A stretch of 64,000 bases of DNA. It comes from Candidatus Moraniibacteriota bacterium. GTDB taxonomy: Bacteria; Patescibacteriota; Minisyncoccia; Moranbacterales; GCA-2747515. The stretch is from the NCBI GenBank assembly GCA_046116545.1, contig CP175956.1, positions 385,734 to 449,733 on the forward strand, given 5' to 3'. Of the stretch, positions 1 to 18,814 are shown piece by piece. A program made the translations under genes and the position numbers. Position 1 is the first letter of the stretch. Each line of letters starts with the position of its first letter. Under the pieces are notes generated by a model. It saw nothing but the letters and a program-made list of their open reading frames with translations, ran no database searches and had not been told where the DNA came from.

Positions 1-1416
1 GAATCGGCATCCATGCGGATGCAAGGTATTCTTTGCTAACAGAAAAGAATATTTCCTTTCCTGCCGCAATAATCTCATGTGTCTTTTTGAGACTTTCCTC
101 AGTTGACACAATTTGATCAAGAATAGCCTCATGCAGTTCTGGTAAATTAACAGCATTTGATGATGCAATTTCTGCTTCATCTTCTGCACTATCACAAAAA
201 GTAAAAACATCATTGTATCGATGGCCCTCTAGTGCTGCCTGTGCTTGATTGAAAATATCATTTGCATTTTCCATCCTAGCAAGCATTGGTAATACGAAAT
301 AACCACTCTCTTCAACATGAGTAATTTTAACGACAGCCTCTACAAGAATTTGTTTAACAGCAGAAATACGTTTTGGCGCCTCACTAACACGTTGCTTCAA
401 ATCAGCAACTTGCTTTGCGATCAGAATATTTTTTGCATTCACTTCAATAAGCGACGCAAGGATTTCTCCGTACGTTTTTGCAATAGTGACATATTCCGGC
501 ACAGAAAGATTCTCAGTATCTGGATCCATTTTTGATGGTAAGCCAGTATATGTCCTCGCTGCATGACCATATGTTTTTTCTGCAGATGCAAACAACTCTG
601 CAACTACTACTATATCATCTGCAACAACAACTTTTACCAGAGAATTCACAAGTGACTTTGAACGAGCAATTGGAAGTTTTAATTCATTAATCAACCTCGA
701 ACATTGCACTTTCATACTCTGTGCTTTACGCTGTGCTGCGCTTCTTTTTTCTTGCTCCCTCTTTTTGTTTCTAAAAAACCAAATGATTGTTGCAATAATA
801 CCACCCACTACAGAAAGGGTGAAAATCCACTTAAGTAATGACCACAAGCCAGACATGTCTGTTGCTTCCTTTTGTACAACAACTGTCGGTGGTGCTACGC
901 GCATTGTCTCACGTACAACATTTGACTGTGGCACATGCGCAGCTGGCACCGGTACATCCAAAACTTTTTCAATTTCATTCAAGGCTGTTATAAATGCTTG
1001 AGCTAAATCACCACTCCGTAGTAGTGGTTTAACTTTGTTTTCACGTATCTGCTTATGATACAAATCCAATTCAGCTTTCCAAAAATCTCCATAGTACAAA
1101 CCTAAATCTCGTTTACCAAATGATACTATAAGTGATATCAATTTCCCATTACTGGTTGATTGCCATTCACTGCATGTATCTTTAAGATGTTGAACGTATG
1201 TATCAAAAGATGAATGTCCTCCAAAATCCTGTATTGCTTGCATACGAACCGTAGCACCAAACTTTTCTTCAAATTTTTGTACTACATCTGCAATACGTGA
1301 TTTATCAGAACCAAAGACACCTGCCTGATCCCATACAACACTACTACATTCATCCGCATATAATACTTGCGGCATAAAACATAGCAATATGCCAATTAAA
1401 ACTAACCATTTTTTCA
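1..1416 (-). CDS. TPM-domain (TLP18.3/Psb32-like phosphatase-fold) membrane protein; 5'-partial in window (gene continues past position 1; start codon at 1414-1416)
   Basis: Own translation of minus strand from ATG at 1416: MKKWLVLIGILLCFMPQVLYADECSSVVWDQAGVFG... signal peptide, TPM-like core (GGHSSFDTY..DFWKAEL), one TM helix (IFTLSVVGGIIATIIWFF), long charged C-terminal region; not in ORF track because it runs off the window edge; plus-strand ORFs 317..535 and 765..1001 are its shadows. Confidence 0.5.
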
Positions 1417-1626
1417 TGAGCCTCTCCCACTTTTAAATTGATAGTATGGTCTTTATACTAAACCAAACTGTTAAAAAACTAATTTTTCTGAAAAATCATT
1501 TCCAGAGTTTTATTTATACAAAAAATATACATAAAACTCTAAAAATCATACATGATAATATATTTACAATAATAATCACTATCAAAAAACCGACTAGATA
1601 ATGTAACACAAAATCAGTAAAAAATC

Positions 1627-1656
1627 AAGCACTAGTTTTATTCAAAACTAGTGCTT
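1627..1656 (-). terminator. intrinsic terminator after PurA-like gene
   Basis: agcactagtttt-attc-aaaactagtgct hairpin abutting the stop codon, T-rich on minus strand downstream. Confidence 0.6.
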
Positions 1657-3091
1657 ATTTTAATGCTTTTTGGTACATCCTACAAATCTTATCTGTAGCA
1701 CATGGACCGACCGACACAATACCTATAAGTGTATTTAGCTCATGTTCTATAAATTGAACATATTGTTGTGCTGAGGGTGGCAATTCATCATAACTTCGTA
1801 TATGCGAAATTTTTTCATACCATCCTATGTGTTGTGTCATTATCGGAATACATTGATTTAACACATGCGTACGATAACGACTCATTTCTCTCGATACATT
1901 TTCATTCTTTTTGATATCATCGATAACTACTCGTTCACCAATATAATGATATTCAAAAAGTTGATTGAAAAATTCACCAACCTCACCCTGATATTCATAT
2001 GATGTACACACATCAATGACATCCATACCAGAAAGTCGATCGAGATTTGTTAAGGAAATATAGTCAAGATTACCTGTACATGCGATTGCATACTTCGTAG
2101 CTACAAGATCAAGCCATCCTACACGGAAATTACCTTGCCATTTTCCCGTACCGTTATGCATATCTGGAATCAATTGACCCAGCTCATAACTTTCTGTTAC
2201 AAATGGTCCAGCGCCATGTCGTGTCATATATGCACGCATAACTCCAACTCGTACAACATCCGCATCACACTCTTCCAGTAATAAATCTGCATTGTAACTA
2301 GTTGTCTGAGAATGCGTGATGTGTGGATAAAAACCATACCCTTCATCCAACAAGACTCCTTGCGAGCCTTCAAACACAAGTGGCCCGACACAATGATTAA
2401 AGAAATCATTCGCTGACATTATTTGCACAATGTCATTTGTTGCAAAATGATAAAATTGTTCACAGATGTCTTCTACATAACCACGCTGCGTTAATTGTGC
2501 AAATAATATTTGCACTTGTTCATTATTTGAATACTGCGCCATAACCTGTTCAGCAAAATCAATCTTGAAATCTCTGAGAAAACATAACTTTTTCAAAGAT
2601 ATTTGTTTATCTGCAAGGTCTCCGATGCGTAATACTTGCTCACCAAATATAACTCCATCAGAAAATGTTTCTCCAACTCCCATGCCACAACTTCCGAGTC
2701 GTTCATCACCACGTATACATTCACGCATACGATTTATAATTTTGTGAAATGGTGTAGTGACCAAACATTTTGAATCAATTGTTATATTTCGTAAACTATC
2801 ATATTGCAGTTTCCCCTGTAATATGCCCAATTCATTTATGAGTGCAACTGGATCAACTACCATATAACGAGACAAGAAAGTTTGAATCTGCTTACTAAGT
2901 GAAGCTGCTCCAATTTGTGCAAAGCAATGGTGTGTACCATCACTCAATAAAATATTATGCGCAGCCTGCGCACCTCCACTAAATCTACAAATTGCAGTTG
3001 CTCTTACATATTGAGCTAGATAATCAACCGTTGTTCCCTTGCCCTCATCGCCAAATCCAAGTCCAACTACAACATATACGTTTTGTGTCAT
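1655..3091 (-). CDS. adenylosuccinate synthetase (PurA) family ligase, divergent
   Basis: GDEGKGT P-loop-like motif near N-term, SGGAQAAHN (cf GGHNAGHT), FEGSQGVLLD..YPHITHSQTT (cf FEGAQGTLLD..YPYVTSSNTT), GAGPF, GWLDLV, LTNLD, VSVGPC blocks all collinear with PurA; but the PurA Arg-rich Asp/IMP loop (TGRRRRTGW) is replaced by GKWQGNFRVGW. Confidence 0.7.
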   Translation of the reverse strand: MTQNVYVVVGLGFGDEGKGTTVDYLAQYVRATAICRFSGGAQAAHNILLSDGTHHCFAQIGAASLSKQIQTFLSRYMVVDPVALINELGILQGKLQYDSLRNITIDSKCLVTTPFHKIINRMRECIRGDERLGSCGMGVGETFSDGVIFGEQVLRIGDLADKQISLKKLCFLRDFKIDFAEQVMAQYSNNEQVQILFAQLTQRGYVEDICEQFYHFATNDIVQIMSANDFFNHCVGPLVFEGSQGVLLDEGYGFYPHITHSQTTSYNADLLLEECDADVVRVGVMRAYMTRHGAGPFVTESYELGQLIPDMHNGTGKWQGNFRVGWLDLVATKYAIACTGNLDYISLTNLDRLSGMDVIDVCTSYEYQGEVGEFFNQLFEYHYIGERVVIDDIKKNENVSREMSRYRTHVLNQCIPIMTQHIGWYEKISHIRSYDELPPSAQQYVQFIEHELNTLIGIVSVGPCATDKICRMYQKALK

Positions 3092-4009
3092 TTATGCATT
3101 CACCTCCCTTGCGATAAAACGTAAAAATTGTTTGTATACATCAATTGCCTTATTAAATGCTGTTTCAGAAAAACACAAGCTATCACTCAGCATAATTGTC
3201 CTATATCCAAATGAATACATCAGATACAAGTCAGATAGGTCTCCAATAGAAACATCTCCACTAGATACAAATGATGTCAGTATACGAGACGCAACAATTG
3301 CATTTGAATCTTTTGCAATAATCATTTGCAACGCATCAAGTATATTCCATTTATTTGAACCAATATTGATGTATAAATCATCACGTGCAGCCATAAGACC
3401 AGTCTTTTGAACTGCGTCAATGTTTTGTACAAATTGCAATCCTGCACATGACTCAATTTTTGCAATTACTTGTGCATCTTTATCGCGAGCATGCAAAACA
3501 TCAATATCACATTGATTTTGAACAAATGACAACATGTAGTCATGTAATCCTAACTCCTTAGCTACTTCTATATACTCACAATCCTCATCAGTAAAAAATC
3601 CTTTTATACACAGATTATTTCCAATGATATTCACTGCTTGACCCGCACCAACAGCATGCTGTGGTGGTGGATCTACAAAAATTTTTATACCATTGATTTC
3701 ACGAATTTCAGATTTACTTCCATCACGAAATACAATAGTTGCAGGTAGGTCAACACTAACTTCATGATTGAGCTCAATGTCTCCGTAAGTTGGTTCTGCC
3801 CACTTTACAATACGTAATTGTCGACATTTCAAATCAACCCATAGCTTCTTTTCACCCAAACATTCGATTATACGCTCCAATGTATTTTTTGGAGTATATG
3901 GTGTACGTACACCAGTATTAAATCGCACAGCATTTACTTGCGTATTCATAACTATCTTGTACATTTGCGTAACATGTGGTGACGGAATTGTTGCTATTAA
4001 TTTCATCAT
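3092..4009 (-). CDS. pyruvate-kinase-like TIM-barrel protein (A-domain only, no B/C domains)
   Basis: N-term KLIATIPSP...VNAVRFNTG resembles PK (K)IVCTIGP...MNVARLNFSHG; AKIESCAGLQFVQNIDAVQKTGLMAARDDLYINIG matches PK (S)KIEN.EGV.N.DEI...DGIMVARGDLGVEIP; only 305 aa. Confidence 0.55.
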   Translation of the reverse strand: MMKLIATIPSPHVTQMYKIVMNTQVNAVRFNTGVRTPYTPKNTLERIIECLGEKKLWVDLKCRQLRIVKWAEPTYGDIELNHEVSVDLPATIVFRDGSKSEIREINGIKIFVDPPPQHAVGAGQAVNIIGNNLCIKGFFTDEDCEYIEVAKELGLHDYMLSFVQNQCDIDVLHARDKDAQVIAKIESCAGLQFVQNIDAVQKTGLMAARDDLYINIGSNKWNILDALQMIIAKDSNAIVASRILTSFVSSGDVSIGDLSDLYLMYSFGYRTIMLSDSLCFSETAFNKAIDVYKQFLRFIAREVNA

Positions 4010-4091
4010 CTATCTACCTCCTCGAACTTGAAATAAAGATGGAGGAGATGTGCATCTACACGGCTCCTCCATTTATTTTTATCTTACCTGA

Positions 4092-5627
4092 TTACAGACG
4101 ACTTGTTTTGTTCTTGCGTCTCTTACCAGAGTTTCTTGCAGGTAAATTACCTGTATCAACTTTCGCAATTGCTGTTGTACTTGCCAGACTATCCAGCGCA
4201 CCCCGAGCATCACTTTGACGAATCTGTGTCTGACCACGCCCTGCCATATCGACAATATAATCATCAATATCAGTTCCTTCAGAAATTGCTAACGCACCCA
4301 TCATTACATCCACAACTGCGCGAGGATCATCAATGATAAGAATGTTTTCCTCTGGAATAACTGACGCCCACTGCGCTTTGATGACTTGATCATCATAACC
4401 AGAATACATACCCACTTCCAACGGACGCTCGTTTGGATCAAAATCAAACGTACCTACAACCACGTCACTTCCTGTCGGAGGAGTACCACTTCCGCGTCCA
4501 ACTGTTCCTTGGCCAATCGTGTCAGTAAAAGTCTGAATTTTACCATGCATTTCTACTTCAACAGTAAAATCTATGGGAAACTGACGATAGCTATTATCAT
4601 CATGTACAGAAAAATTTCGCATAAAAACAGTATATTTACCTTTTGGTGCACTGCCTCGTTCCCACCTGACATTTTCTACTGGTTTACGTGTCTCACGTCC
4701 ACCAGCATTACGATCAACATCCAGTTCACCTCGTCCATTACGAGATACTTTATTATCATATGCGATGTGTTCTGCTACACCGCCTGCGCCAACATCTGGA
4801 TCAACAATGACATGTAAATCCAAATCATCATATGTATTCCACATCCCTGTTGCCCGAAAGTCAATATCTTCATATTGTCCACCAGCTTCATCAAGACGCT
4901 TTTTGATTTCTGCATCAATATCATCCTTTCTTTCTTCCCACGTTTTTTGTGGATAGACAAAGAAAACATGATATTTTTCTTGCAATTCGCGGAAAATCTG
5001 TTCTGTCGGAATGTCAGATGGAACATCATCACCAATATAGGTTTTGATTTGATCCTTGGAAATATTAGAATAAAATCCTTCATCGCCTAGAAAAAAAAGA
5101 TATCCTTTTTTACCACGCTTCCAACAATCAAGCTCCGTCTTTCTGGCGAGGTAATACGCCATGAGTTCATATGACTCTTGACCAGTTCCTCCACCACCTT
5201 CTTCCAACCAGATTTTGCCCAAGTGTTCATCCAAGACATTATCAGCATCAAACTGTGCTACCTGAATTGGTGCCTTATCACCACTTGTCGCATCACCAAC
5301 AGCCGCAAAGCAGATCTCAGGATCATCAACATAGCCCTTCATGATTAGCTGACCGATAAACATCGGTAACTTACCATAAATTACTTTTGCATCATCACCA
5401 CGTGACCTCGTCACATCCATCGCAACAATAATTGGCGTTGCTTGTGGATGTTCCTCGGTATCACGACATTCACGTATCATATCTTTGATATTCAAGTCAT
5501 CATGAACTGCACGACGTGCTGTCGCAGCATCTTCATCTGGACCCTCATATCCTGAATACGTAAAATTATCTCTGCAACTTGAGCGTTGTCGATCACCTAC
5601 ATCACCGTCGTAAAATCCTCCACCCAT
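4092..5627 (-). CDS. von Willebrand factor A (vWA) domain protein with ~300-aa uncharacterised C-terminal region
   Basis: IIVAMDVTRSRG (MIDAS-like DxTxS), ...EEGGGGTGQESYELMAYYLARK, ...YLFFLGDEGFY fits vWA fold signature; GC content visibly higher than flanking genes. Confidence 0.5.
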   Translation of the reverse strand: MGGGFYDGDVGDRQRSSCRDNFTYSGYEGPDEDAATARRAVHDDLNIKDMIRECRDTEEHPQATPIIVAMDVTRSRGDDAKVIYGKLPMFIGQLIMKGYVDDPEICFAAVGDATSGDKAPIQVAQFDADNVLDEHLGKIWLEEGGGGTGQESYELMAYYLARKTELDCWKRGKKGYLFFLGDEGFYSNISKDQIKTYIGDDVPSDIPTEQIFRELQEKYHVFFVYPQKTWEERKDDIDAEIKKRLDEAGGQYEDIDFRATGMWNTYDDLDLHVIVDPDVGAGGVAEHIAYDNKVSRNGRGELDVDRNAGGRETRKPVENVRWERGSAPKGKYTVFMRNFSVHDDNSYRQFPIDFTVEVEMHGKIQTFTDTIGQGTVGRGSGTPPTGSDVVVGTFDFDPNERPLEVGMYSGYDDQVIKAQWASVIPEENILIIDDPRAVVDVMMGALAISEGTDIDDYIVDMAGRGQTQIRQSDARGALDSLASTTAIAKVDTGNLPARNSGKRRKNKTSRL

Positions 5628-5667
5628 TTTTTAATCCTCCTGATTTTTTAACATTTTACCAATAGTG

Positions 5668-6762
5668 TTATACACGGAATTCCAAAAACTTTTTTGGACC
5701 CCATAATTCTATAACCAAATCATTTAACATTGCATACATTTCCCATGCATCTTGTGCACGTTGCCGCGGACTCTCAAGTGTAAAAAACTTGAGAAATCTC
5801 TGCAGCGCAGCGTTCACAGATGCAGGCATTGCATTTGTTTTTACATCACCACCAAGCGCAAAGATCATCGTTTTCCCTAGAGAATAGAGATCTGATGCTG
5901 GTAACGGTGACTTTTTCTGCACAACTTCTGGTGCACTAAATTCCTCATTAAATACCTTGAACCCATCATTTGTTCGTGCAGGATTCAGAGCACTATAACA
6001 CCAGTCAATAAGCCATGCGTTATGATCTTTTGGTCGAATCATAATATGTGATGGATCGATGTTTCCATGTACACAACCTTGACTATGTACATAACCAAGC
6101 GCACTAAGCGCACGGTTCATCATCCATACAACATGCTTCTGATCAATACCATATTTCCATCGCGAACTTTCACGAATAGAATATAAGTCATGACCATCAA
6201 TGTACTCCATTATCGTTCCAAGTTGTCCATCACTGGTCTTGAATCGATCCAAAAGTACTGGAAGATGTTTCAATTGACTTGCAGGATTATCTTTGAACAA
6301 TCGCAAAATTTTAATCTCATTTTGCATCAAATCATTATCTGCACTATCATCAACAACTTTTACAACAACTGGACCAGTAAATGCATCTCCAATCGCCTGA
6401 CCACCATACACAACACTTAAATCACCTTCTGCAAGCGTCTTTGTGACAGTATACGTATTTTTACGAGTTTGAATCGTAAATGATTCACTATCTGAAATAT
6501 CAGTTTGTTCTTCAGATAATGTGTCTCCGTATATGCCTTGCGTCAATTTTCGAGTTGCCTTTACATAATACTCAGTCAACTTTACAAAAGCATCATTTGC
6601 CTGCACATTACCATTATTTCTATCTGGATGTACAACTTTTGATAACTGCCTAAAAGTACTTTTAACAAAAGCTGCATTTGCTTCAATGCCAAAGATATCC
6701 TCAGGATATTGTGCACATTCTATTCGCTCACATACAACTGTAAGTTCTCCCATTGCTTTCAC
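5668..6762 (-). CDS. J-domain (DnaJ-like, HPD motif) fused to protein-kinase-like domain, probable pseudokinase
   Basis: N-term ...FRQLSKVVHPDRNNGNVQANDAFVKLTEYY (HPD J-domain); kinase-like VVVKVV / EIKILRLF / catalytic-loop position VHGNIDPSHIMI (HRDLKPEN with D->N and K->D) / LIDWCYS (DFG-like) / SAPEV (APE). Confidence 0.55.
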   Translation of the reverse strand: MKAMGELTVVCERIECAQYPEDIFGIEANAAFVKSTFRQLSKVVHPDRNNGNVQANDAFVKLTEYYVKATRKLTQGIYGDTLSEEQTDISDSESFTIQTRKNTYTVTKTLAEGDLSVVYGGQAIGDAFTGPVVVKVVDDSADNDLMQNEIKILRLFKDNPASQLKHLPVLLDRFKTSDGQLGTIMEYIDGHDLYSIRESSRWKYGIDQKHVVWMMNRALSALGYVHSQGCVHGNIDPSHIMIRPKDHNAWLIDWCYSALNPARTNDGFKVFNEEFSAPEVVQKKSPLPASDLYSLGKTMIFALGGDVKTNAMPASVNAALQRFLKFFTLESPRQRAQDAWEMYAMLNDLVIELWGPKKFLEFRV

Positions 6763-6771
6763 CTCCTCTTA

Positions 6772-7410
6772 TTAATTGTACTCATTGTGCACAATAATAC
6801 ATGCATCATCTTTTTGTAATTTGATTTTTTCTTCATACAATGACACAACATCTGACTCAAAACGATCTCGCACAACTTGTGCTGATACACCATACTTTTG
6901 TGTATCACGCATAATTCTCCGTTGTAAAAGTGTTTGTACACTAACATCTATAAAAATATCAATTATGTCACATGAGAGTGTTTGTAAAATAGTAGTGACA
7001 AACAATCCCTCAGCAATAATAATATTTGCTGGTTGACACACATTTTTATGATGTGTAATTCGTTTGTTCAAGTAAATATCATATTGCGGAATGCATACAG
7101 CATTTCCACATAACAATAAACCAATATCTGAAATAAATTCTCGTGTATGATACGAATCAATACTATCAAATATACACCGACCATTTTGGTCTCGTGGCAA
7201 TGTGTTATCATCAACATCCTTAAAATAAGAATCTAATGCTATAACAATTGACATTATATCGCCTTGCAGTAATGCCTGAGTTAATTGCTGTGAAAAATAA
7301 GTTTTTCCACTACAACTACCCCCGGAAACAGCTACTACGATTGGAGAATGTATATATTGCAAATATTCTACAAGTACATTTACGCACAAACATATATTCT
7401 TGTATTCCAT
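6772..7410 (-). CDS. uridine kinase / nicotinamide riboside kinase family P-loop nucleoside kinase
   Basis: VAVSGGSCSGKT Walker A; ALDSYFKD, IIIAEGLF, RRIMRDTQKYGVS..V..RFESDV.SLYEEKI collinear with Udk (IPEDCYYKD, VIILEGIL, RRIKRD..RGRS..V...Y). Confidence 0.7.
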   Translation of the reverse strand: MEYKNICLCVNVLVEYLQYIHSPIVVAVSGGSCSGKTYFSQQLTQALLQGDIMSIVIALDSYFKDVDDNTLPRDQNGRCIFDSIDSYHTREFISDIGLLLCGNAVCIPQYDIYLNKRITHHKNVCQPANIIIAEGLFVTTILQTLSCDIIDIFIDVSVQTLLQRRIMRDTQKYGVSAQVVRDRFESDVVSLYEEKIKLQKDDACIIVHNEYN

Positions 7411-7480
7411 TGACTATATCCTCTTGTATTTTATTTTTAAAAAACTTTTTTTCATTCTGATAAACATTTCTATCTATAAG

Positions 7481-7538
7481 AATGGAAATGGTATACCTAA
7501 ATAAATATTTTGATACACTAATTTCTGTAAAATTATAT
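7481..7538. repeat. duplicated intergenic element in NAD cluster (copy 1)
   Basis: aatggaaatggtatacctaaataaatattttgatacactaatttctgtaaaattatat vs copy at 8241-8298. Confidence 0.5.
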
Positions 7539-7539
7539 G

Positions 7540-7570
7540 TCTAAGAAGATAAATTTTTATCTTCTTAGAC
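7540..7570 (-). terminator. hairpin/terminator downstream of NMNAT-like gene
   Basis: tctaagaagataaa-ttt-ttatcttcttaga perfect palindrome. Confidence 0.5.
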
Positions 7571-7574
7571 TGAT

Positions 7575-8192
7575 TTATGTTTTATATAAATTATTAGAAA
7601 CGATATAGCATGATACATCATCATTTACAAGATGTCTAGTAGTTTCTCCTGCTGCAATGTACTCTCGTGCCATGGTACCCGAACCAAAAATATTAGAAAT
7701 CCCAACAAGTCGTGATTGTGGTGGCAGATCATTACGAGACACCTGATATCCAGGTCGCCGTAATACTAAAAAATTAAGGTCCTGCCAAATTTCACATCCC
7801 CTGCTCCATGTACGGTGAATTTCTGATGCACCATCTTGTCCACCTTCGATTATGTCACCGCCCACGATGTGCCAAATTTCCCCATCAGAAAATTCGTCTT
7901 CATACCTCTTTTGCAAAAGATACGTCGGAGTATACGTGCAACAATCAATGTCATGATAGTCGATTATGACATCATCCATATCTGATAATGCAATCGCTAA
8001 CATATTTTTGCGATGCACTGGTGTAATGACATTTGCCGATTGTTTATCTGGACGTATCCCACATGGCACAACGATCAATACGTCAAAAAACCGTTTCATA
8101 TATTCAATAATTTGAACATGATGTATACATGGCGGATTAAAACTACCCCCAAAAATACCAACTACTTTTTTCATAATTACACCTCTAATCAT
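7575..8192 (-). CDS. nicotinamide/nicotinate mononucleotide adenylyltransferase-like nucleotidyltransferase (eukaryote-type GSFNP motif)
   Basis: VGIFGGSFNPPCIHHVQII = (H/T)xGH-class nucleotidyltransferase motif in the GSFNP(P) form of NMNATs; size 205 aa. Confidence 0.6.
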   Translation of the reverse strand: MIRGVIMKKVVGIFGGSFNPPCIHHVQIIEYMKRFFDVLIVVPCGIRPDKQSANVITPVHRKNMLAIALSDMDDVIIDYHDIDCCTYTPTYLLQKRYEDEFSDGEIWHIVGGDIIEGGQDGASEIHRTWSRGCEIWQDLNFLVLRRPGYQVSRNDLPPQSRLVGISNIFGSGTMAREYIAAGETTRHLVNDDVSCYIVSNNLYKT

Positions 8193-8240
8193 AAAACTTT
8201 AAAAGAACTCATCATCATCCCAAAAATATATTAACCTTAG

Positions 8241-8298
8241 GATGGAAATAATATATCCAAACATAAATTTTGATACACAATTTCTATAATTCAATTTT
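8241..8298. repeat. duplicated intergenic element in NAD cluster (copy 2)
   Basis: gatggaaataatatatccaaacataaattttgatacacaatttctataattcaatttt. Confidence 0.5.
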
Positions 8299-8390
8299 GT
8301 GCTATACCAAGCACATACATGTTTGTTAAAAATATTTATTTATCCAGTGTGCAAAAATTTATTTTGCACACTGGATTTTTGACAACGATA

Positions 8391-9077
8391 TTATTGTGCG
8401 ATGATTTGTGCAGCAGACTGTACAATTATAGCTCCAGCGTCTTGCATTTCATCAATGGCTTTTTTTGTACCATCTGGATCTATACCACGACAAGCACCTA
8501 AATTTAGAATTACTTTAAATCCAGCACGTAATAATTGAAGCACTGTTAGCTTCACACAAAAGTCAGTAGCCAACCCGCCAACAATCACCGTATCCATACC
8601 CTGCACTTGCATCCACTCAATAACACCAGTAGATATTTTATCTCCAAGATCATGATAACATGCCCCATACGGATGCATGTCTCTTTCAACTCCCTTGTAA
8701 ATCAAGAAATCATACTCTTCCGGTTTTGGCAGGCCTGCAATCAACTCAAAACCAAATGTGCCAGGTACACCATGCATAAACCACTTTAAATCAATATTTG
8801 CTAAATCTGCAAAGCATCCTTCTACAGGCTGAGCCAATTCCTTCAATTCCTCTGTTTTCCAATAAGCATTGACCGGATGAGCATCCTTAGATACAACTCG
8901 TTTACTTGCTTTTTTTGCACCATCATTGAGTTCATCAACAATATCCTCACCACCTTTAACAGCTAATTCATCTGGACACCTTGGCGTAAAGCAGTACATC
9001 GCGTCCACATCAAATGCTACTGTTATTGCCTTTTTCACATATACATTATCCATAATCACTACCCCTCCTTTATACAT
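8391..9077 (-). CDS. pncA: nicotinamidase/pyrazinamidase (PncA), isochorismatase-family cysteine hydrolase
   Basis: TVIVGGLATDFCVKLTVLQLLRAGFKV with the GLATD(Y/F)CV catalytic Cys motif; N-term Asp and Lys-bearing blocks typical of the family. Confidence 0.65.
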   Translation of the reverse strand: MYKGGVVIMDNVYVKKAITVAFDVDAMYCFTPRCPDELAVKGGEDIVDELNDGAKKASKRVVSKDAHPVNAYWKTEELKELAQPVEGCFADLANIDLKWFMHGVPGTFGFELIAGLPKPEEYDFLIYKGVERDMHPYGACYHDLGDKISTGVIEWMQVQGMDTVIVGGLATDFCVKLTVLQLLRAGFKVILNLGACRGIDPDGTKKAIDEMQDAGAIIVQSAAQIIAQ

Positions 9078-9326
9078 TTTAGATTTATGATTTTATACAT
9101 AGGCTATTTACAGATCCACTTGTTATCGTTTATTTCAAAGAACAAAACCTTATCGTTACATTAAGTTTTAACTAATTTGCTGTCCAACTATCTTATATGA
9201 TTTTTATAATTGACAGACTTTAGTTATTACTTAGTGTATGTCTTACACTTCTAAATTCACTATAGCACCCCATCCAAATCGTGTCAAGTCTACACTAAGT
9301 ATTTATGGATAACTTTTACAATATAT

Positions 9327-9367
9327 AAAAACCACTTTAAGATAATTATCTTAAAGTGGTTTTTTCT
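9327..9367. terminator. bidirectional intrinsic terminator
   Basis: aaaaaccactttaagataattatcttaaagtggttttttc : 14-bp perfect stem flanked by A- and T-tracts. Confidence 0.7.
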
Positions 9368-9372
9368 ATTTG

Positions 9373-10125
9373 TTAATATGCTTTTAACTGTAAAATAGAT
9401 CTCTTGAGATTTAACCTTGCCTGATTTTCATATCTATCCTTGAAATAATCTGTAAGAAAGATACTCGATCTATTATTCAAAAAGTCGGCTAAAATTTTAG
9501 ACCTTCCCTCTCGAAATGCTAACTCCTCCACCCATGCATATTCTTTTCTAATATTACTTTCATATTCGTCAAAAATATCTACTGGCTGTCCGAGTATAAG
9601 CAAATCAATATCAAGACCAGTCATCGTATCAGTGCTATGCGGAGTATTTTTGTGATCATAATAAATAATTGCTTGAGCAACAGCATCAACTATTTCACTT
9701 ACTACACCATACTTTGTCAAAAACTCCCTAGCATATTCACCACTCATCACATCATTATACCCCAGGGCATACTCTCTTGCTTCGCAATTCACCTCATCAC
9801 TCCTACTAAAATCCATCACACTATCATGCAAAACCAATTGCCACAACACATTTATTGGATTTTTAACTTTGTCTACAACATGCTCAAAAAAACTATGTAT
9901 ACAAAATTCGATGTGACCATCAAATGTATGATAATATCGTTTTGACTTATTATATTTTACAACAAGTTCCTGAAATCCTTGTTGATAATCACCAGTGCAT
10001 GCGCTATATCGCCACAAAGTTTCAAATTTTCTTTCTAAACAGTTCATCCCTAATCCTCCGCTTTTTGTAGAGACACGATTAATAGTATCTCTACAATTTT
10101 CATTATAAATGACTGCAAAAAGCAA
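9373..10125 (-). CDS. HD-domain metal-dependent phosphohydrolase (predicted)
   Basis: H..H...HD...D spacing: YHTFDGHIEFCIHSF ... LVLHDSVMD; no closer family assignment possible by eye. Confidence 0.4.
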   Translation of the reverse strand: MLFAVIYNENCRDTINRVSTKSGGLGMNCLERKFETLWRYSACTGDYQQGFQELVVKYNKSKRYYHTFDGHIEFCIHSFFEHVVDKVKNPINVLWQLVLHDSVMDFSRSDEVNCEAREYALGYNDVMSGEYAREFLTKYGVVSEIVDAVAQAIIYYDHKNTPHSTDTMTGLDIDLLILGQPVDIFDEYESNIRKEYAWVEELAFREGRSKILADFLNNRSSIFLTDYFKDRYENQARLNLKRSILQLKAY

Positions 10126-11137
10126 CGGCCTGTTTACGCAATTCGCCTATGTGACAATCAGTGTTAACATACACAAAATTTAATATCTCGCACTTACAAA
10201 TATCCCGTGATTCTTGTAAGTTTGGTATCGCATTAGTCAAAACTTTGTGCTTAGGGGTTCCACGTTTATCCAAACGTTCATGACTTACATCATCACTACA
10301 TCCAACATAAATAATCTTCCCACCTAAATATTTATACACTTCCTTCCCTGCTCTAAGTCCATACGGAACTTCCAAAAAAATATTACTGCCAGCAGGAACT
10401 TGTCGCAAATATTCTCGCACTGCTCCAAACCATACATCTACTATAACCTTAGTTACTTCCGAATCATTCTTTGAAACAAGTGCAACCAAATCTGCGTCCT
10501 GACCAAACTTATCCAGAAGTAATGGTCGTACACGCTTTGAACATTCATCAGTATCAATCCAAATATTTTTGGTATCAACTTCAGAAACCATCTTCAAAAA
10601 AGTACTCTTACCTGATCCAGGGCAACCTACAACCATAAATATATTTCTGGCCTGTAGCTCTCTTTCTAAAAGAATTGAGACGATGCCCGGCGCTACATAT
10701 TTCGCCAACATTTGAAAATCAAGATCACCAATAGCACGCCTCGCACGTGTAGCAGAAACAGAGACGAACTCCTCCTTAGCCCACACATAAAATATTTTAT
10801 CAATGCCAAACATCTCTTTGTTAATCTTCATGACATGTCTCTCATGCTCCATATCATCCTCGCACCTAATACCACGAATCATGACAACATCAGGAAAATC
10901 AAATCTACCTTTACTTTCTTCAAATGTAATCACATCTACATTGCTCGGTAAATTATAATACTTCCACATTGCTACACATTCTTTTTCACTAAACCAGCGT
11001 GTCTTATCCTTCTTCTCATTAGTTGAACAGACAATTGTTACTTTTGGTAAAATTCTACTAGCCTCTTTCACAATTGCAAAGTGTCCATACGTCGGTGGTG
11101 AAAAAACTCCTGGAAAAATAAATTGTCCATTACTCAT
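10103..11137 (-). CDS. bifunctional cytidylyltransferase-like nucleotidyltransferase (CoaD/NMNAT class) + P-loop kinase (NadR- or CoA-synthase-like architecture)
   Basis: N-term FPGVFSPPTYGHFAIV...VTIVCSTNEKKD...ISATRARRAIGDLD collinear with PPAT/CoaD (GTFDPITNGH...NPSKKPLF...SS(T/S)L(I/V)RE..GGD); C-term FMVVGCPGSGKSTFLK Walker A kinase domain. Confidence 0.55.
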   Translation of the reverse strand: MSNGQFIFPGVFSPPTYGHFAIVKEASRILPKVTIVCSTNEKKDKTRWFSEKECVAMWKYYNLPSNVDVITFEESKGRFDFPDVVMIRGIRCEDDMEHERHVMKINKEMFGIDKIFYVWAKEEFVSVSATRARRAIGDLDFQMLAKYVAPGIVSILLERELQARNIFMVVGCPGSGKSTFLKMVSEVDTKNIWIDTDECSKRVRPLLLDKFGQDADLVALVSKNDSEVTKVIVDVWFGAVREYLRQVPAGSNIFLEVPYGLRAGKEVYKYLGGKIIYVGCSDDVSHERLDKRGTPKHKVLTNAIPNLQESRDICKCEILNFVYVNTDCHIGELRKQAVAFCSHL

Positions 11138-11180
11138 ACTTTACCCTCCTGCTATATTTACTATTATGATTATTTAAACT

Positions 11181-11217
11181 CCTTCGCATTGTCATCCTGA
11201 ATTTATTTCAGGATCTA
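11181..11217. repeat. TGTCAT-family palindromic unit upstream of frameshifted TrmB gene
   Basis: ccttcgcattgtcatcctgaatttatttcaggatc. Confidence 0.4.
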
Positions 11218-11449
11218 AGTCTTACTAGAGCTTTGTGATATTACAAGATTCTGTAATAAGTTCAGAATGAGATCTTCTATTGTTAAATTACTATAAATAG
11301 CTTATACTAATTAACAAGATAAATCGTCAGTGACAACTAAAAATATTATCAGTTCCTTGTTTTTAAGTTAAATAAAGAACTATCACATCAATAATTGTCG
11401 ATTTATTTCGACATCACTACTGATTTATATAAAAAATTTATCAATTATT

Positions 11450-12200
11450 ATGTCACAAAAAATTAAAAAGTATTTACGAGAATTAGGCTTTAGTAAAAAT
11501 GAACAAAAAATCTATATAGCACTTACTGAGCTTGGTGAAGCTAGTGCTTCCATAATTGCAAAAAAAAGCAGATACACCACGCACCACAGCAATAAGCATC
11601 CTAGAAAAACTTGAGAAAGAAAAATATATATCTATCCAACGTTACCGTGGTCGAAACACATTTTGGATTGAATCACCTCAAATGATCAAAAAATCGCTTG
11701 AACAAAAAGTAGTAATAGCTGATGAATTAGATATACTTTTAACAGATCTCTATCGATCAGAGTCTGATTTTCCATATGCAAAAATATATGATACTAAATC
11801 TAGCATCAAATCATTCATCGAAACCCTAATATCAAAAACTGAAAATGGGACTACTATCTATACTATTGATAATCCAAAGTCAGGAAATTACCGTAAGATC
11901 CTATCGAAGAAATTTTATTACGATATGATTGCTATGAAAAATAAAAATAATATTACAACACAAACACTTATCCCAGAAGGTACCTACAAAACAATAAATC
12001 CTCAAAAAATTATTGACAGAAATATTGAAATTCATGAATTACCTAAAAATGTAGAATTTAAAGCATCTCTCTGGATTATTGATAACACACTAGTTCTATT
12101 TTCAGGAAAATATCCTTTTATCGTTGCCGTTAATCATAAGATTATAACAAGTAGTATTAAATCATTTTTCGACTATTTTTGGATGATTGCCAAAAATTAA
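11450..12200 (+). CDS. TrmB-family transcriptional regulator, interrupted by +1 frameshift in A8 run at 11560-11567 (paralog of 52906..53649)
   Basis: ATG at 11450 gives MSQKIKKYLRELGFSKNEQKIYIALTELGEASASIIAKK then stop; ORF-track frame 11556..12200 continues ADTPRTTAISILEKLEKE...; removing one A fuses them to SIIAKKADTPRTTAISILEKL, which aligns with the intact paralog YRVAQKSGVKKPTTYVLLDEL. Confidence 0.55.
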
Positions 12201-12238
12201 ACAAGGAAACCACTCATATATCGAGTGGTTTTTTCAGA

Positions 12239-12982
12239 TTATTTTGTAAATATCAATTCTCTTTTTTTAAATTTATATAATTTTGCTGGCCTATGCTTCA
12301 TGCCCTCTTTTACTTTCTTTGTTTCTGCCAGAATATTAAGTGATAGAATCTTTTTTCGAAAATTTCTTTTATCAACTATTGTGCCTAAAATAATCTCATA
12401 AACTTGTTGCATTTCAGTTAAAGTAAATGTTTTTGGTAACAGCCCATATACAATATTTGAATATTCAATCTTTGCCCTCAATCGTTCCACGCCAAACACA
12501 ATCATTTCTTTATGGTCAAATGCCATCTGTGGTAATTCTTCTACATCCACCCAATCAATGTCAGAGTAATAATCCATTGTTTTAAGATCAAGTTTATCAC
12601 TATTAACCAATGCAAAATATGCAACAGATATCATTCGTCCACGAATATCTCGCTTAAGGCTACTAAAACTATAGAGTTGCTCCATGTAAACACCTTTAAT
12701 TCCTGCTTTTTTCTTAAGCACATTTTTTGCTGCTTGATCCAGTGTCTCATCAATCTGTACAATTCCACCTGGCAACGCCCATTTATTCTCATATTTACCA
12801 CTACCAATTTCAATAAGTAAAGTCATTAATTTACCCTCTCGAATCGTAAAAATTAAAGTATCTACAGCAACAGCTGGTCCAATAATTAATTCATCTTTTC
12901 GTTTTGTATTTTGAATTTTCATAAATAAGATATAAAGTGTTATTAATACACTAACAATAACATATTTTTCCAATAAAGTCAA
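12239..12982 (-). CDS. nrtR: NrtR-like regulator: Nudix hydrolase domain + C-terminal winged-helix (NAD-metabolism repressor family)
   Basis: Nudix box region WALPGGIVQIDETLDQAAKNVLKKKAGI; ~90-aa C-terminal extension typical of NrtR wHTH; location at edge of pncA/NMNAT cluster. Confidence 0.55.
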   Translation of the reverse strand: MTLLEKYVIVSVLITLYILFMKIQNTKRKDELIIGPAVAVDTLIFTIREGKLMTLLIEIGSGKYENKWALPGGIVQIDETLDQAAKNVLKKKAGIKGVYMEQLYSFSSLKRDIRGRMISVAYFALVNSDKLDLKTMDYYSDIDWVDVEELPQMAFDHKEMIVFGVERLRAKIEYSNIVYGLLPKTFTLTEMQQVYEIILGTIVDKRNFRKKILSLNILAETKKVKEGMKHRPAKLYKFKKRELIFTK

Positions 12983-13012
12983 TGTGGCATTGCAATATGC
13001 ACAAACACATCA

Positions 13013-13669
13013 CTAAAAATATTCTTTTATCAACTTTACTATATCACCAGATGAATTAGCAAAACCAAAAGGAGCCCCTTTTTCCAATGTGTCAACTCTC
13101 TGAAATCCCCAAGTCACTGCAATGGACGCAATCCCTAGTGAATTAGCCTCTTTCAAATCCCCTAATGTATCAGTTACAAATATAATATTTTCCACGTCTA
13201 ATTTAGTATTCTTTAAAATCTTCTCAAATTTCTTTTCTTTTGATGGATTTGTTTCTACTCCATAAATTGTACACAGGTTTTCACAAATATTTTTTTCCTT
13301 GAAAAAATCTTTTATATTTCCTTCACACCCTGATGACACTATAAAGGATTTTCCGATTTCTTGAGACCACCTTGCAACATCATCCATGCCTTCCACAATT
13401 GGTAATTTAATCAATTCAGATTTTATACTTTGACAGTATTTTTGTACATCAAAATTTCCCAATTCTAATCCTAAATCATCATCTTCATAAACATTACCAC
13501 TATGAATCTCATAAAAAGCTTTGTTATCCATTTTTATATCCAAAAAACTCTCAATATGTTTTTTGTGAAAATCAAAATCATCTACAAACACTCCATCAAA
13601 ATCAAAAACTATAGCTTTATCTTTTTTCATATTTTTATTTAATATATGCTTCACCGTCAAAAAACTCAT
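13013..13669 (-). CDS. HAD-superfamily hydrolase (beta-phosphoglucomutase-like phosphatase)
   Basis: AIVFDFDGVFVDD (DxDG motif I), ...SSG (motif II), ...VTDTLGD (motif IV). Confidence 0.6.
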   Translation of the reverse strand: MSFLTVKHILNKNMKKDKAIVFDFDGVFVDDFDFHKKHIESFLDIKMDNKAFYEIHSGNVYEDDDLGLELGNFDVQKYCQSIKSELIKLPIVEGMDDVARWSQEIGKSFIVSSGCEGNIKDFFKEKNICENLCTIYGVETNPSKEKKFEKILKNTKLDVENIIFVTDTLGDLKEANSLGIASIAVTWGFQRVDTLEKGAPFGFANSSGDIVKLIKEYF

Positions 13670-14681: not shown

Positions 14682-16310
14682 CTATAATTGTCCTCCACAA
14701 TTTGCACAAAACTTTGCACCTGCTATATTATCAGTGCCACAATTTGCACATTTTACAGGAATTATTTCATCTGAATTAGAGCCTTTATTTGCACCAAAAG
14801 CATTTTGATCTGTTGACTCATTATTTTTTTGTATCGATTGTGAATTTTGCACAGCTTCTTGTTGTATTGGCATTTCAATAGGTTGTGTTTTATTTTTCCT
14901 TTTTAAAGTTTTAATTACTATAAGTATTATTACAATAAGTATAATAATACCGAGTACACCAACAACGCCCAGTACCATAAAGCTAAATCCACCAGCTGTT
15001 GTGTCTTTTGCTGAACTTGCAATATTTACGTCATTTATTTTTACAGATGCCTTTTCTCCAGTTATACTATCATCTTGCATATCAGACCTTGCCTCACCAA
15101 TACCAGCTTCCGTATTTGCTTTTATTGTTGATGCTTTCTCTATAGGAGCGCCTTCTCCCTCTAAAGCAATTATAATATCGTACTGAGTTTTATCTTTTTT
15201 CGTTTTTTCAGACTCATATGCTGGACACCAAGAATAATTTCCACACGATTCTCTCCAATCATTCCCGATTGAAATATAATATTCACCTGTTTCATCTGCA
15301 ATAAATGCGGCTTTATAAGAAACTGGCTCTGTTGATCCTGACCGTAACCCTAGTGTTACTGGGGAAAATGCTCCAGAACCACATGAATCAGCGACCAACT
15401 CACTAACAACTGATTGATATTTATCATAAATTTTTACAACAGGCAACATACACATACTAGTTGCGTTATCTTCACTCATTGCCTGTTCTCTTTTCATATT
15501 TAATGCCGCTATAATATTTTGCCCCTTATATGCCTTAATTTTATAAAATTTAGTCTCACCGGCACGAATATCACCACCATAAGCACCCTCTTTAATAGTT
15601 GGTGCATTTACAAAGCCAGTACCTGCTGCAACACCGCCTGCATTTGCAAATCCTTCAAAAGCTCTTTGTGAAAAAAATGTCATACTTGCCACTAATTCTC
15701 CAGCATTCTTTGCACTTCTGTACTCTCCGCCTGTAGCCTGAGCAACACATTTAAGTTGTTCTTCTGCAATTCCACTAACATCAAATCCAACAGTGTTTAC
15801 AACTATATCAAATCCTTCGTCACGCATTTTTTTAACTGTTGCACAAGGATCTCCACCACATGTTTCCTCACCATCAGAAACAAGTATTACCATTTTGCCA
15901 AATTCTGGATTTTTATTAAAATCAGATTTTGTTTGTTGTAAAGAATAATCAATCGGAGTCCAACCGCCTGGATTAAGAGAATTAATTTTTGAAATTAATT
16001 GACTTTTATTTATTTTACTAATTGGATAAATTAATTCTGAATCCTGACAATCTTTATTTGCACTCGTTGATCTATGTCCATATGCACGAAATCCCACAAA
16101 TGCATTTTCTGGCATTTCATTTATAACTGTTGTCAGAGCTTCTTTTGCTACATCCATTTTTGATTTTCCTCCATCTATGATTCCTGCCATACTGCCTGAT
16201 ACATCCAAGATAATTTCGACATCATTACCTTTTATATCTACTGCCTGGACTTGTTGTACAAAAACCATACTGAATATGGCTAGACTGAGCATTATATAAA
16301 TCTTGTTCAT
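14682..16310 (-). CDS. exported vWA-domain protein with C-terminal TM helix and cytoplasmic double zinc-ribbon
   Basis: signal peptide MNKIYIMLSLAIFSMVFVQQVQA; ILDVSGSMAG (MIDAS DxSxS), GGWTP, ILVSDGEE; TM FSFMVLGVVGVLGIIILIVIILIV; tail CANCGTDNIAGAKFCANCGGQL. Confidence 0.6.
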   Translation of the reverse strand: MNKIYIMLSLAIFSMVFVQQVQAVDIKGNDVEIILDVSGSMAGIIDGGKSKMDVAKEALTTVINEMPENAFVGFRAYGHRSTSANKDCQDSELIYPISKINKSQLISKINSLNPGGWTPIDYSLQQTKSDFNKNPEFGKMVILVSDGEETCGGDPCATVKKMRDEGFDIVVNTVGFDVSGIAEEQLKCVAQATGGEYRSAKNAGELVASMTFFSQRAFEGFANAGGVAAGTGFVNAPTIKEGAYGGDIRAGETKFYKIKAYKGQNIIAALNMKREQAMSEDNATSMCMLPVVKIYDKYQSVVSELVADSCGSGAFSPVTLGLRSGSTEPVSYKAAFIADETGEYYISIGNDWRESCGNYSWCPAYESEKTKKDKTQYDIIIALEGEGAPIEKASTIKANTEAGIGEARSDMQDDSITGEKASVKINDVNIASSAKDTTAGGFSFMVLGVVGVLGIIILIVIILIVIKTLKRKNKTQPIEMPIQQEAVQNSQSIQKNNESTDQNAFGANKGSNSDEIIPVKCANCGTDNIAGAKFCANCGGQL

Positions 16311-17683: not shown

Positions 17684-18814
17684 TTATTCCTTATTTTGTT
17701 TCATCTTATACCAAACAAATACACCTAATGCTACACATACTAGTATTAGCATTATTGCAAACATTGGTCTATAAAAAATCCAAGCAATTGCGATTGTCAA
17801 TAAAGAAATTTGTACTGCTGCTATGAATGACATAATACCAATTCCAAAACCTATGATATTACCTATAAATGGCACAACATCTCCAATAACTTCCAAAGGT
17901 TTCAAAATAATTTTTGTACCAATCATTATCATAAAAAACCCAACAAATCGTAATATCCATGTCATTAGCTTATTGCTGCTTTTTGCTGAATCAAACATCT
18001 GCTGAGCTGTTTGATCTCGAGAAGTCAAAAATTCTAATGTCTGTCCTTTACTGGTCACAAAAGGTTTAAAGCTATCTCCCTTTTGTTGAGAAATCATACT
18101 AACTACTTCTGGACTTACAGTTTGATAACTGATTTTCAAATCACCTATTTTTGGATTATTCTGATCTTCTCCGATATATATTATTCCACCAATTAATTTA
18201 ATACTGTCATCTTCTGAAACCTCTTTTTTCATTTCTACAACTGGAAAGTTTTTATAGTTCCCAATTTTATTTATCAAAGACTCTGATAATTTAAACTTTC
18301 CCAACTGCACATTACCTGCACTTAAAGTATCACTTTCATACATCATGATTCCAGGATTATCATGACCTTGATCATGAAAGCCTCCACTATCAATTAAACT
18401 ACTATTCCAATCTTTATTGTAAGTATAAGTTGTTGTTGTCTCTGTGCTCCCTCCCATTTTTTTTGTACTAGAAGAATCAGTGTTTTCTTCCCATTGATAC
18501 ATCTCCACTAAACGTTTTAATTTTATTCCTTCAAATACAACACCAAACTGACTATCTTCTAATACATCCTTAGTTTCCAACTTTCCATTTAAATGCACAA
18601 GCTTTCCATCTTGCCCAGGATCAATTTGCTCTATTGAAGCATTTTCAACCATGCTTTGACCTTCATCTAATGCCTTTTTTGTATGAACTGCTCGTCCCTC
18701 ATTCCAAAACAAAAGCACTATAGCAGCAATTAATAAAAGAACACCAAAAAGAATCCCTTTAATAGAACCACCTAATCGACTACCCCAGGATTCTGACGTT
18801 GTAACTGTAGACAT
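17684..18814 (-). CDS. TMEM43/DUF1625-like membrane protein (N-terminal TM, large loop, C-terminal TM bundle)
   Basis: N-term TM ILFGVLLLIAAIVLLFW, conserved-looking EMYQWEE motif, C-terminal multi-TM region; assignment from memory of the family, moderate. Confidence 0.4.
   Translation of the reverse strand: MSTVTTSESWGSRLGGSIKGILFGVLLLIAAIVLLFWNEGRAVHTKKALDEGQSMVENASIEQIDPGQDGKLVHLNGKLETKDVLEDSQFGVVFEGIKLKRLVEMYQWEENTDSSSTKKMGGSTETTTTYTYNKDWNSSLIDSGGFHDQGHDNPGIMMYESDTLSAGNVQLGKFKLSESLINKIGNYKNFPVVEMKKEVSEDDSIKLIGGIIYIGEDQNNPKIGDLKISYQTVSPEVVSMISQQKGDSFKPFVTSKGQTLEFLTSRDQTAQQMFDSAKSSNKLMTWILRFVGFFMIMIGTKIILKPLEVIGDVVPFIGNIIGFGIGIMSFIAAVQISLLTIAIAWIFYRPMFAIMLILVCVALGVFVWYKMKQNKE

Follow-up and report, generated by a model that had tools for sequence, protein, structure and literature searches.

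In the 64,000-nucleotide stretch of a Candidatus Moraniibacteriota chromosome analysed here (contig CP175956.1, positions 385,734 to 449,733; referred to below as the window), a J-domain protein with a kinase-like domain (5668..6762, an open reading frame (ORF) of 364 residues) and a von Willebrand factor A (vWA) protein (4092..5627, 511 residues) are encoded side by side on the minus strand, upstream of a gene on the same strand for a PurA-like adenylosuccinate synthetase (1655..3091, 478 residues). These three genes recur together as a cassette that is widespread in giant phages and in assorted bacteria and is apparently undescribed. The kinase-like protein is a pseudokinase throughout its family, and the vWA protein has a predicted fold with an intact metal-ion-dependent adhesion site (MIDAS). 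Our preferred reading, put forward tentatively and at something short of an even chance, is that the pseudokinase, usually fused to a J-domain, and the MIDAS vWA protein are a non-catalytic, Hsp70-coupled adaptor pair that serves the synthetase, the third member of the cassette core. An original prediction, made from the sequence of the window, had seen in the first two genes a GC-rich, horizontally acquired insert encoding a TerY-P-like signalling dyad.

The 364-residue protein, for which a GTG start is assumed with an ATG alternative at 6753, matches the Pfam Pkinase family (1.2e-17) and, at its N-terminus, DnaJ (PF00226; 4.2e-6), the latter with 27.2 bits, just under the gathering cut-off of 27.8. 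The J-domain had been predicted from its HPD motif, and it is borne out at the level of the family, of known structures and of the model. PF00226 is matched at E<=1e-3 by 31 of 41 pseudokinase family members (best 1e-8), all 23 matches of residues 1–80 in the PDB are J-domain proteins, and the AlphaFold model, with a predicted local distance difference test score (pLDDT) of 92.9, places the HPD between helices spanning residues 30–44 and 53–75. His45, Pro46 and Asp47 are at least 90% conserved in the family alignment (A3). We conclude that residues 1–78 (6529..6762) are a J-domain with its HPD at residues 45–47 (6622–6630). The remainder of the chain (residues ~100–364, 5668..6465) has the Hanks fold, and Foldseek aligns these C-terminal 265 residues with PknB, ULK1, PAK and CK2 at E ~1e-13. 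The complete protein belongs to PHROG 3043, annotated 'kinase' (2.5e-39), a family with hundreds of homologues; the fusion of a J-domain to a kinase fold, which had been called unusual, is thus common, if uncharacterised. Matches to the ternary-complex domain TCAD9 were sub-threshold (E 0.007–0.06) and were not used.

The catalytic loop reads HGNIDPSH (residues 232–239, 6046–6069) in place of HRDxKxxN, so that Asn takes the position of Asp, Asp that of Lys and His that of Asn. The prediction of a pseudokinase made from this loop is upheld by comparison of 62 bacterial homologues and of a viral alignment of 68 sequences (66 viral, the window copy and that of phage Alice), in that the catalytic Asp is found in 0 of the 130. 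Position 234 is Asn in 60 and His in two of the bacterial sequences; in the viral alignment it is Ala in 54, Gly in five and Asn in four. Position 239 is mostly His in place of Asn. The ATP-site Lys135 (6358–6360) is kept in 62/62 bacterial sequences and 63/68 of the viral alignment, Glu149 in 61/62 and 64/68, and the DFG Asp, Asp253, in 59/62 and 50/68; the APE Glu is also conserved. The DWC at the DFG position (residues 253–255, 5998–6006) had been taken as a further degenerate site; it retains the Mg-binding Asp, and CK2alpha, the best sequence match of the domain, itself carries DWG. Judged from these alignments, the protein is an old, conserved pseudokinase and not a decaying kinase. JAK2 JH2 has HGN and HER3 has HRN at the catalytic loop. 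The window protein resembles these nucleotide-binding regulatory scaffolds in the change of the loop Asp to Asn with the ATP-site Lys, Glu and Asp kept; it differs in that the families are unrelated and the likeness convergent, and in that the phage pseudokinases have Ala here and some are without the DFG Asp.

The conserved Lys135, Glu149, Asp253 and APE Glu could also be those of a kinase or nucleotidyl transferase that is atypical yet catalytically active, with Glu/Asp236 and His239 replacing the canonical Asp and Asn and with, as its target, a small molecule or a Thr or Ser of the vWA tail (...K-[TS]-x-R-L). The bacterial subfamily is consistent with such an enzyme, having Glu or Asp at position 236 in 58/62 members and His at position 239 in 57/62; most long-form vWA tails have Thr or Ser at position −4, and weak Pfam matches to APH and Kdo kinases were obtained for 5 of 41 members. 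The phage homologues argue the other way. Besides the Ala at position 234 in 54/68, they have a hydrophobic residue at position 236 (Leu, Val or Ile in 50/68), so that the substitute base is not family-wide; a quarter of the viral members have lost the DFG Asp, and the short viral form of the vWA protein does not conserve the tail Thr/Ser. Because the candidate substitute residues are unconserved in the phage members, we regard an active enzyme of this kind as improbable.

The second protein was recognised from its predicted structure and its MIDAS residues, which bear out the assignment as a vWA protein; sequence models do not. No Pfam or NCBIfam model, those for vWA domains included, matched it at E<=1, and a sequence profile of the family gave no meaningful match in the PDB. 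The model (pLDDT 76) was matched by Foldseek to integrin beta I-like domains and to the vWA domain of SpaC with E-values of 2e-8 to 1e-6 and a probability of 1.0, the low TM-scores reflecting the multi-domain nature of the matched chains. The predicted vWA domain spans residues ~50–250 (4878..5480), and its MIDAS is made up of DVTRS (5403–5417), Thr148 and Asp182. Across the family, Asp71, Ser75 and Asp182 of this site (D71-x-T73-x-S75) are invariant, Thr73 is near invariant and position 148 is Thr or Ser. The site is thus intact in what is, on the model, a vWA fold.

Downstream of this domain, residues ~252–400 (4428..4874) form a beta-sandwich insert of YfaP/DUF2135-like type. Pfam, DUF2135 included, gave no match to the insert at E<=1; tblastn with residues 236–368 recovered stand-alone phage proteins, one of them annotated DUF2135, and NCBI names the Uabimicrobium orthologue of the vWA protein 'YfaP family'. 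The PHROG assignments divide the chain in the same way, residues 46–250 corresponding to PHROG 2971 (unknown function) and residues 237–369 to PHROG 1735. A C-terminal helical domain follows (4170–4397; helices at residues 413–485 of the model), and the chain ends in a disordered basic tail, ...GKRRKNKTSRL (4092–4169 with the stop codon), where the pLDDT is below 50 and where Arg510 and Leu511 are nevertheless near invariant in the family alignment. The vWA protein has more than 1000 homologues, and an exhaustive profile search with the family gave 1034 clusters at E<=1e-30. Most represent proteins of ~330 residues that share the MGGG... N-terminus, the vWA domain, the C-terminal domain and the tail and are without the beta-sandwich; this short form, which is PHROG 2971, has a DxTGS MIDAS in phages and an invariant GDE. 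The homologue in Mycobacterium phage Alice, gp247 (L001:7032-8816), is longer, at 594 residues, and its middle part gives weak Hint/intein-like matches (E 0.0016 and 0.008, under the Pfam cut-offs); the vWA match in phage Sauce is split, over an annotated HNH endonuclease. The sequences suggest an intein at a conserved site of the mycobacteriophage vWA protein.

The C-terminal tail offers a hint, from co-occurrence in sequence, that the two proteins interact. Among the viral loci, a tail of the form -[RK][LIVM]-COOH is present in 52/65 of those with a pseudokinase and in 0/17 of those without, and the MGGG N-terminus and the MIDAS are present irrespective of the pseudokinase. The tail is retained in 14 of 20 loci whose kinase-like protein has no HPD, and it therefore tracks the kinase-like domain, not the J-domain.

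The third gene encodes a PurA-like protein that matches the Pfam family at 3.3e-82 and aligns with PurA structures in the PDB. It scores 239 bits with the NCBIfam purA model, whose equivalog cut-off is 402, and 37.7 bits with PurZ, whose cut-off is 300. Of the enzymes linked to the trio, 33/33 from bacteria and 42/51 from viruses have the P-loop GDEGKG, always with Asp, and the enzyme is probably active. The trio-linked proteins have GGxQA[AG]H (GGxQAAH in the window copy) where canonical PurA has GG[HN]NAGH, and an insert around residues 375–408; these features may reflect a different substrate or mode of regulation. PHROG 1211 gives the family a PurZ-type name. Like the auxiliary PurA/PurZ genes of the Z-genome pathway in phages, the cassette gene encodes an enzyme of the adenylosuccinate synthetase fold that phages carry; it differs from PurZ in its own GGxQA[AG]H signature, in its score and in its P-loop Asp, which is Ser in PurZ (bioRxiv 10.1101/2025.10.22.683976), and we rejected PurZ as its identity. 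Neither DatZ nor MazZ was noticed beside the gene, although no search aimed at them was made.

To define the distribution of the cassette we used a bacterial set of 80 loci from species-representative genomes and a viral set of 80 IMG/VR contigs, mostly of 100–500 kb, seeded with the short vWA family. At least eight phyla contribute bacterial loci, among them Patescibacteria, Myxococcota, Spirochaetota, Acidobacteriota and Planctomycetota. In nearly all of the loci with two complete ORFs the vWA gene begins ~10–100 bp after the kinase gene, and a PurA-like gene follows in ~55/80. In Uabimicrobium and in a metagenome-assembled genome of Leptospiraceae, the trio is an operon by itself, flanked on either side by genes of opposite orientation. 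On the viral contigs the PurA-like gene adjoins the vWA gene in 76/80 and a pseudokinase gene is adjacent in 66/80; no further gene family recurs in more than six of these loci. The linkage of vWA and PurA-like genes extends over four phage lineages, the two genes lying side by side in phages of Mycobacterium, Rhizobium and Vibrio and in faecal phages. The ~200 cluster C mycobacteriophages have the order kinase, vWA, small ORF, adenylosuccinate synthetase, with kinase homologues 32% and vWA homologues 42% identical to the window proteins. A second viral order, vWA, PurA-like, pseudokinase, occurs on ten contigs (L107, L108, L110, L112, L122, L124, L125, L127, L157 and L179), in nine of which the pseudokinase has 293–347 residues and no HPD; the exception, L179, has 411 residues and an HPD. 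Scanning IMG/VR with kinase patterns gave no match, which was an artefact of the patterns, since the vWA-seeded scan recovered 66 viral pseudokinases; when the long-form vWA alignment was used to scan IMG/VR, nearly all matches were stand-alone DUF2135-like proteins. Full-text literature searches found no description of the trio, and absence there is no proof of novelty. Given its patchy spread across phyla and phages, we conclude that the cassette is mobile over long time scales.

In the mechanism that we propose, the pseudokinase would phosphorylate nothing; it would bind nucleotide and act as a scaffold on which the vWA protein docks by its conserved -R-L tail. The J-domain, where present, would recruit the cellular Hsp70, DnaK (the window itself holds no DnaK gene), and the MIDAS of the vWA protein would grip a candidate client, most plausibly the co-encoded PurA-like enzyme. 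The pair would then assemble, activate or regulate that enzyme in the manner of a MoxR–vWA activase, with Hsp70 as the motor. In the bacterial variant, a protein with a pyruvate-kinase barrel, described below, could regenerate the nucleoside triphosphate spent by the synthetase.

MoxR AAA+ ATPases and vWA proteins form chaperone–adaptor pairs such as CbbQ/CbbO, NorQ/NorD and RavA/ViaA. The likeness proposed here is that of a MIDAS vWA protein encoded together with a factor that would couple it to an ATP-driven remodeller, beside a candidate client enzyme. The cassette differs in being without a MoxR or other AAA+ partner: no MoxR-family Pfam match was found among the 47 ORFs of the window that have 120 residues or more, no AAA+ family is recurrent in the related loci, and the link to an ATPase would run from the J-domain to Hsp70. 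J-domain proteins with an HPD, of which RB43 Rki is an example, are encoded by large phages and presumed to hijack the host DnaK; here the domain is fused to a pseudokinase, in a cassette with vWA and PurA-like genes, and is found on bacterial chromosomes as well. A survey of jumbo phages records sporadic DnaJ-domain co-chaperones and a different MoxR–vWA pair only (PMC7824862). By these comparisons the cassette would be a novel combination within the known vWA/pseudokinase modules and vWA adaptor systems, its mechanism being proposed by analogy.

Several observations weigh against an Hsp70-coupled adaptor pair. The J-domain is frequent but not universal among the pseudokinase homologues: an exact HPD is present in 46/66 viral and ~28/62 bacterial sequences, and Myxococcota homologues have an N-terminal zinc ribbon in its place, so that coupling to Hsp70 cannot be the part of the mechanism that all versions share. 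In the viral alignment 17/68 sequences are without the DFG Asp, and nucleotide binding is for this reason not universal either. Pairs of vWA and PurA-like genes without a pseudokinase are found on 14/80 viral contigs and in Rhizobium, Vibrio and faecal phages; in Rhizobium phage RHph_TM39, hhalign detected no kinase-like gene upstream of the vWA gene. The association of the tail with the pseudokinase (Fisher 7e-10) is uncorrected for phylogeny. Finally, the adjacency of the genes could mirror the co-regulation of unrelated functions in regions devoted to nucleotide metabolism.

A bolder form of the adaptor reading, which we think rather doubtful, is that a giant-phage module has been borrowed by bacteria, those of the candidate phyla radiation (CPR) included, and that in it a dead kinase and a MIDAS adaptor use the host Hsp70 to activate, protect or relocate the PurA-like enzyme. 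If so, the pair would be a vWA 'activase' of a new class that works independently of AAA+ proteins; it would be linked to the control of the adenine-nucleotide and NAD pools in infected cells and might counteract immunity that depletes nucleotides. Should the adaptor reading as such hold, PHROG 3043, 2971 and 1211, at present 'kinase', 'unknown function' and a PurZ-type synthetase, would be a single functional unit, present in hundreds of large phages, among them the ~200 genetically tractable cluster C mycobacteriophages, and in at least eight bacterial phyla. A testable role would follow for a prokaryotic or viral pseudokinase and for a phage J-domain, and the PurA-like auxiliary genes of phages would be regulated machines, not simple metabolic boosters.

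The trio is most abundant in the lytic Bixzunavirus phages and on viral contigs of large size, which also suits a conflict module with which phages would counter defences or take over the host, and which bacteria may have domesticated. The PurA-like protein would be an effector that rebuilds or rewires the adenine-nucleotide and NAD-linked pool, and the pseudokinase and vWA protein would be its sensor or switch and not a chaperone adaptor. NAD-salvage genes recur beside the cassette, in a minority of loci. They are present in the window. In 13 genome loci (L006-L010, L013, L016-L018, L023, L028, L034 and L035) a protein of ~820 residues, read by eye as a fusion of a glutamine-dependent NAD synthetase (NadE) with NMNAT, its NMNAT part being matched by tblastn, is encoded directly upstream of the pseudokinase, ~2.5 kb from it. 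RHph_TM39 has an annotated NMNAT/Nudix gene and a phosphoribosyltransferase-like gene near its vWA–PurA pair, and Nampt-, NrtR- and NMNAT-like genes were recognised on four to six viral contigs by eye, not by family search. The coupling of inactive kinases to vWA domains is, moreover, a described theme of prokaryotic conflict systems (PMC7159879). On the other side, PADLOC returned generic kinase matches only (mad6, PD-T4-6 and MkoA) and none for the other genes, the literature searched held no description of the trio, and in the window and its CPR relatives the setting looks like housekeeping salvage metabolism. A conflict module seems to us possible, if on the unlikely side; it is compatible with the adaptor model and does not exclude it.

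Kinase–PP2C–vWA (TerY-P) triads were reportedly described by Anantharaman and colleagues in 2012. The cassette resembles them in having a vWA gene beside a gene for a Hanks-type kinase fold and, in some relatives of the kinase, an N-terminal zinc ribbon. It is set apart by the dead loop of the kinase family-wide, by a separate vWA family (PHROG 2971), by the PurA-like third gene and by the lack of a PP2C gene. No PP2C match was found with Pfam in the 47 window ORFs, and none is encoded among the recurrent neighbours in the 80 genome and 80 viral loci, so that the phosphatase partner expected elsewhere was not recovered in these 160 related loci. A TerY-P triad was rejected, as none of its three components, a PP2C, a competent kinase and a TerY-type vWA protein recognisable by profile, is found here; nor does the looser description as a TerY-P-like dyad survive. 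Related triads linked to GAP1-N2 have been described by Kaur et al. 2020 (PMC7159879).

The idea that the two genes are a recently acquired GC-rich island encoding such a dyad, with its PP2C elsewhere, has in its favour that triads of this type exist, that the cassette has a patchy distribution among phyla and phages and that the region coincides with the GC maximum of the window. The composition is indeed non-uniform: the vWA gene has 42.2% GC, the kinase gene 38.2% and the two together 40.3%, compared with 33.5% for the window, and among windows of the same length (standard deviation 2.4%) the region is among the top 1% and includes the maximum. To this extent the pair is GC-rich; it does not reach the mid-40s, and the flanking genes, at 32–40%, are not confined to 30–35% as had been estimated. 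Gene by gene, the vWA gene has z=2.3 and the kinase gene an unremarkable z of 1.2. The excess is modest and is driven mainly by first codon positions of the vWA gene (GC1=0.59, z 2.2), because its product contains 11.5% Asp and 10.4% Gly and is also rich in Val, Ala, Glu and Arg. At third positions (GC3) the vWA gene has 0.277 (z 1.3) and the kinase gene 0.258 (z 0.9) against a mean of 0.216, and several other window genes are equal or higher.

Synteny leads to the same result. The related CPR contigs L002 and L003 have the identical order of nine genes at 61–89% identity, the block of the pair with its flanks being found there at 74–89%, and in the more distant CPR lineage L004 the kinase and vWA proteins are the best conserved of the block, at 60–66% compared with 44–49% for their neighbours. 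With a GC1-driven excess and syntenic flanks in related CPR genomes, there is no compositional sign of a recent two-gene insertion, and a recent compositional island was rejected. The pair is part of a five-gene operon that relatives share together with its flanks, and the supposed GC-rich island is no island. Taking this with the vWA protein that Pfam vWA models do not recognise, the lack of a PP2C in the window or among recurrent neighbours and a kinase inactive in every homologue, we consider a newly acquired TerY-P-like island very improbable indeed.

The five minus-strand genes look, from the sequence, like a single operon. A gene of the uridine-kinase/PRK family (6772..7410; Pfam PRK 1.8e-14, NCBIfam udk 102 bits, under the cut-off of that model) leads it, and between the vWA and PurA-like genes there is a pyruvate-kinase-barrel-like gene (3092..4009, 305 residues), whose product matches the Pfam barrel family at 3.8e-10 and pyruvate kinases in the PDB at 5e-5. 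Such a barrel gene occupies this position in ~25/80 bacterial and 0/80 viral loci. From the uridine-kinase gene to the PurA-like gene the successive gaps are 9, 40, 82 and 0 bp. The genes are read as one operon because strong sites consisting of a hairpin and a T run bracket them on the minus strand: one at 7539–7570, which resembles a terminator of the upstream NMNAT gene, and one with a 14-bp stem at 1626–1657, which would close the operon. The leader (7411..7570, minus strand) contains the first of these hairpins and an element of ~55 nucleotides (~7470–7530) that is shared with the region upstream of the NMNAT gene (~8235–8300). The element, which occurs twice only, may be an operator; a search of positions 1–13200 with Rfam gave no credible family, and the shared element had no Rfam match. 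The version of the cassette on this CPR chromosome is an expanded one, with a YfaP/DUF2135-like insert in the vWA protein, an added barrel gene and a uridine-kinase-family gene at the head of the operon.

Upstream of the operon, Pfam and NCBIfam identify genes for NMNAT, nicotinamidase, a CoaD-like/P-loop fusion and an NrtR regulator. The fusion (10103–11137, minus strand) joins a CoaD/NMNAT-like adenylyltransferase domain to a P-loop kinase-like domain, and the regulator (12239–12982, minus strand) is of the NrtR type, with Nudix and winged-helix domains. The cassette genes belong, with those for NMNAT, nicotinamidase and NrtR, to an NAD/nucleotide-salvage cluster of a CPR bacterium. The matches to mycobacteriophages had prompted us to consider that the window was itself phage DNA; this was rejected on the presence of genes for UvrA, UvrC, GyrA, a class II aminoacyl-tRNA synthetase, TGT and FBA, and because a database copy that is 100% identical to the vWA protein is labelled Candidatus Moraniibacteriota.

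Elsewhere in the window, an ORF of 250 residues without a family match (9373–10125) neighbours the CoaD-like/P-loop fusion. Starting 238 bp downstream of the PurA-like gene, a signal-peptide protein with a TPM_phosphatase domain (1–1417, minus strand) runs past the window edge and has 762 residues in the source contig. A second, unrelated vWA protein (14682–16310, minus strand), with a Pfam VWA_2 domain and a C-terminal zinc ribbon, lies near a TMEM43-like protein and a DUF2207 membrane protein (17684–18814 and 18890–20560). Two very large ORFs are also present on the minus strand, one at 56353–59760 encoding 1135 residues, with no Pfam match and a very low GC3 (0.114), and the other at 38016–44306 encoding a LamG/DUF2341 protein of 2096 residues.

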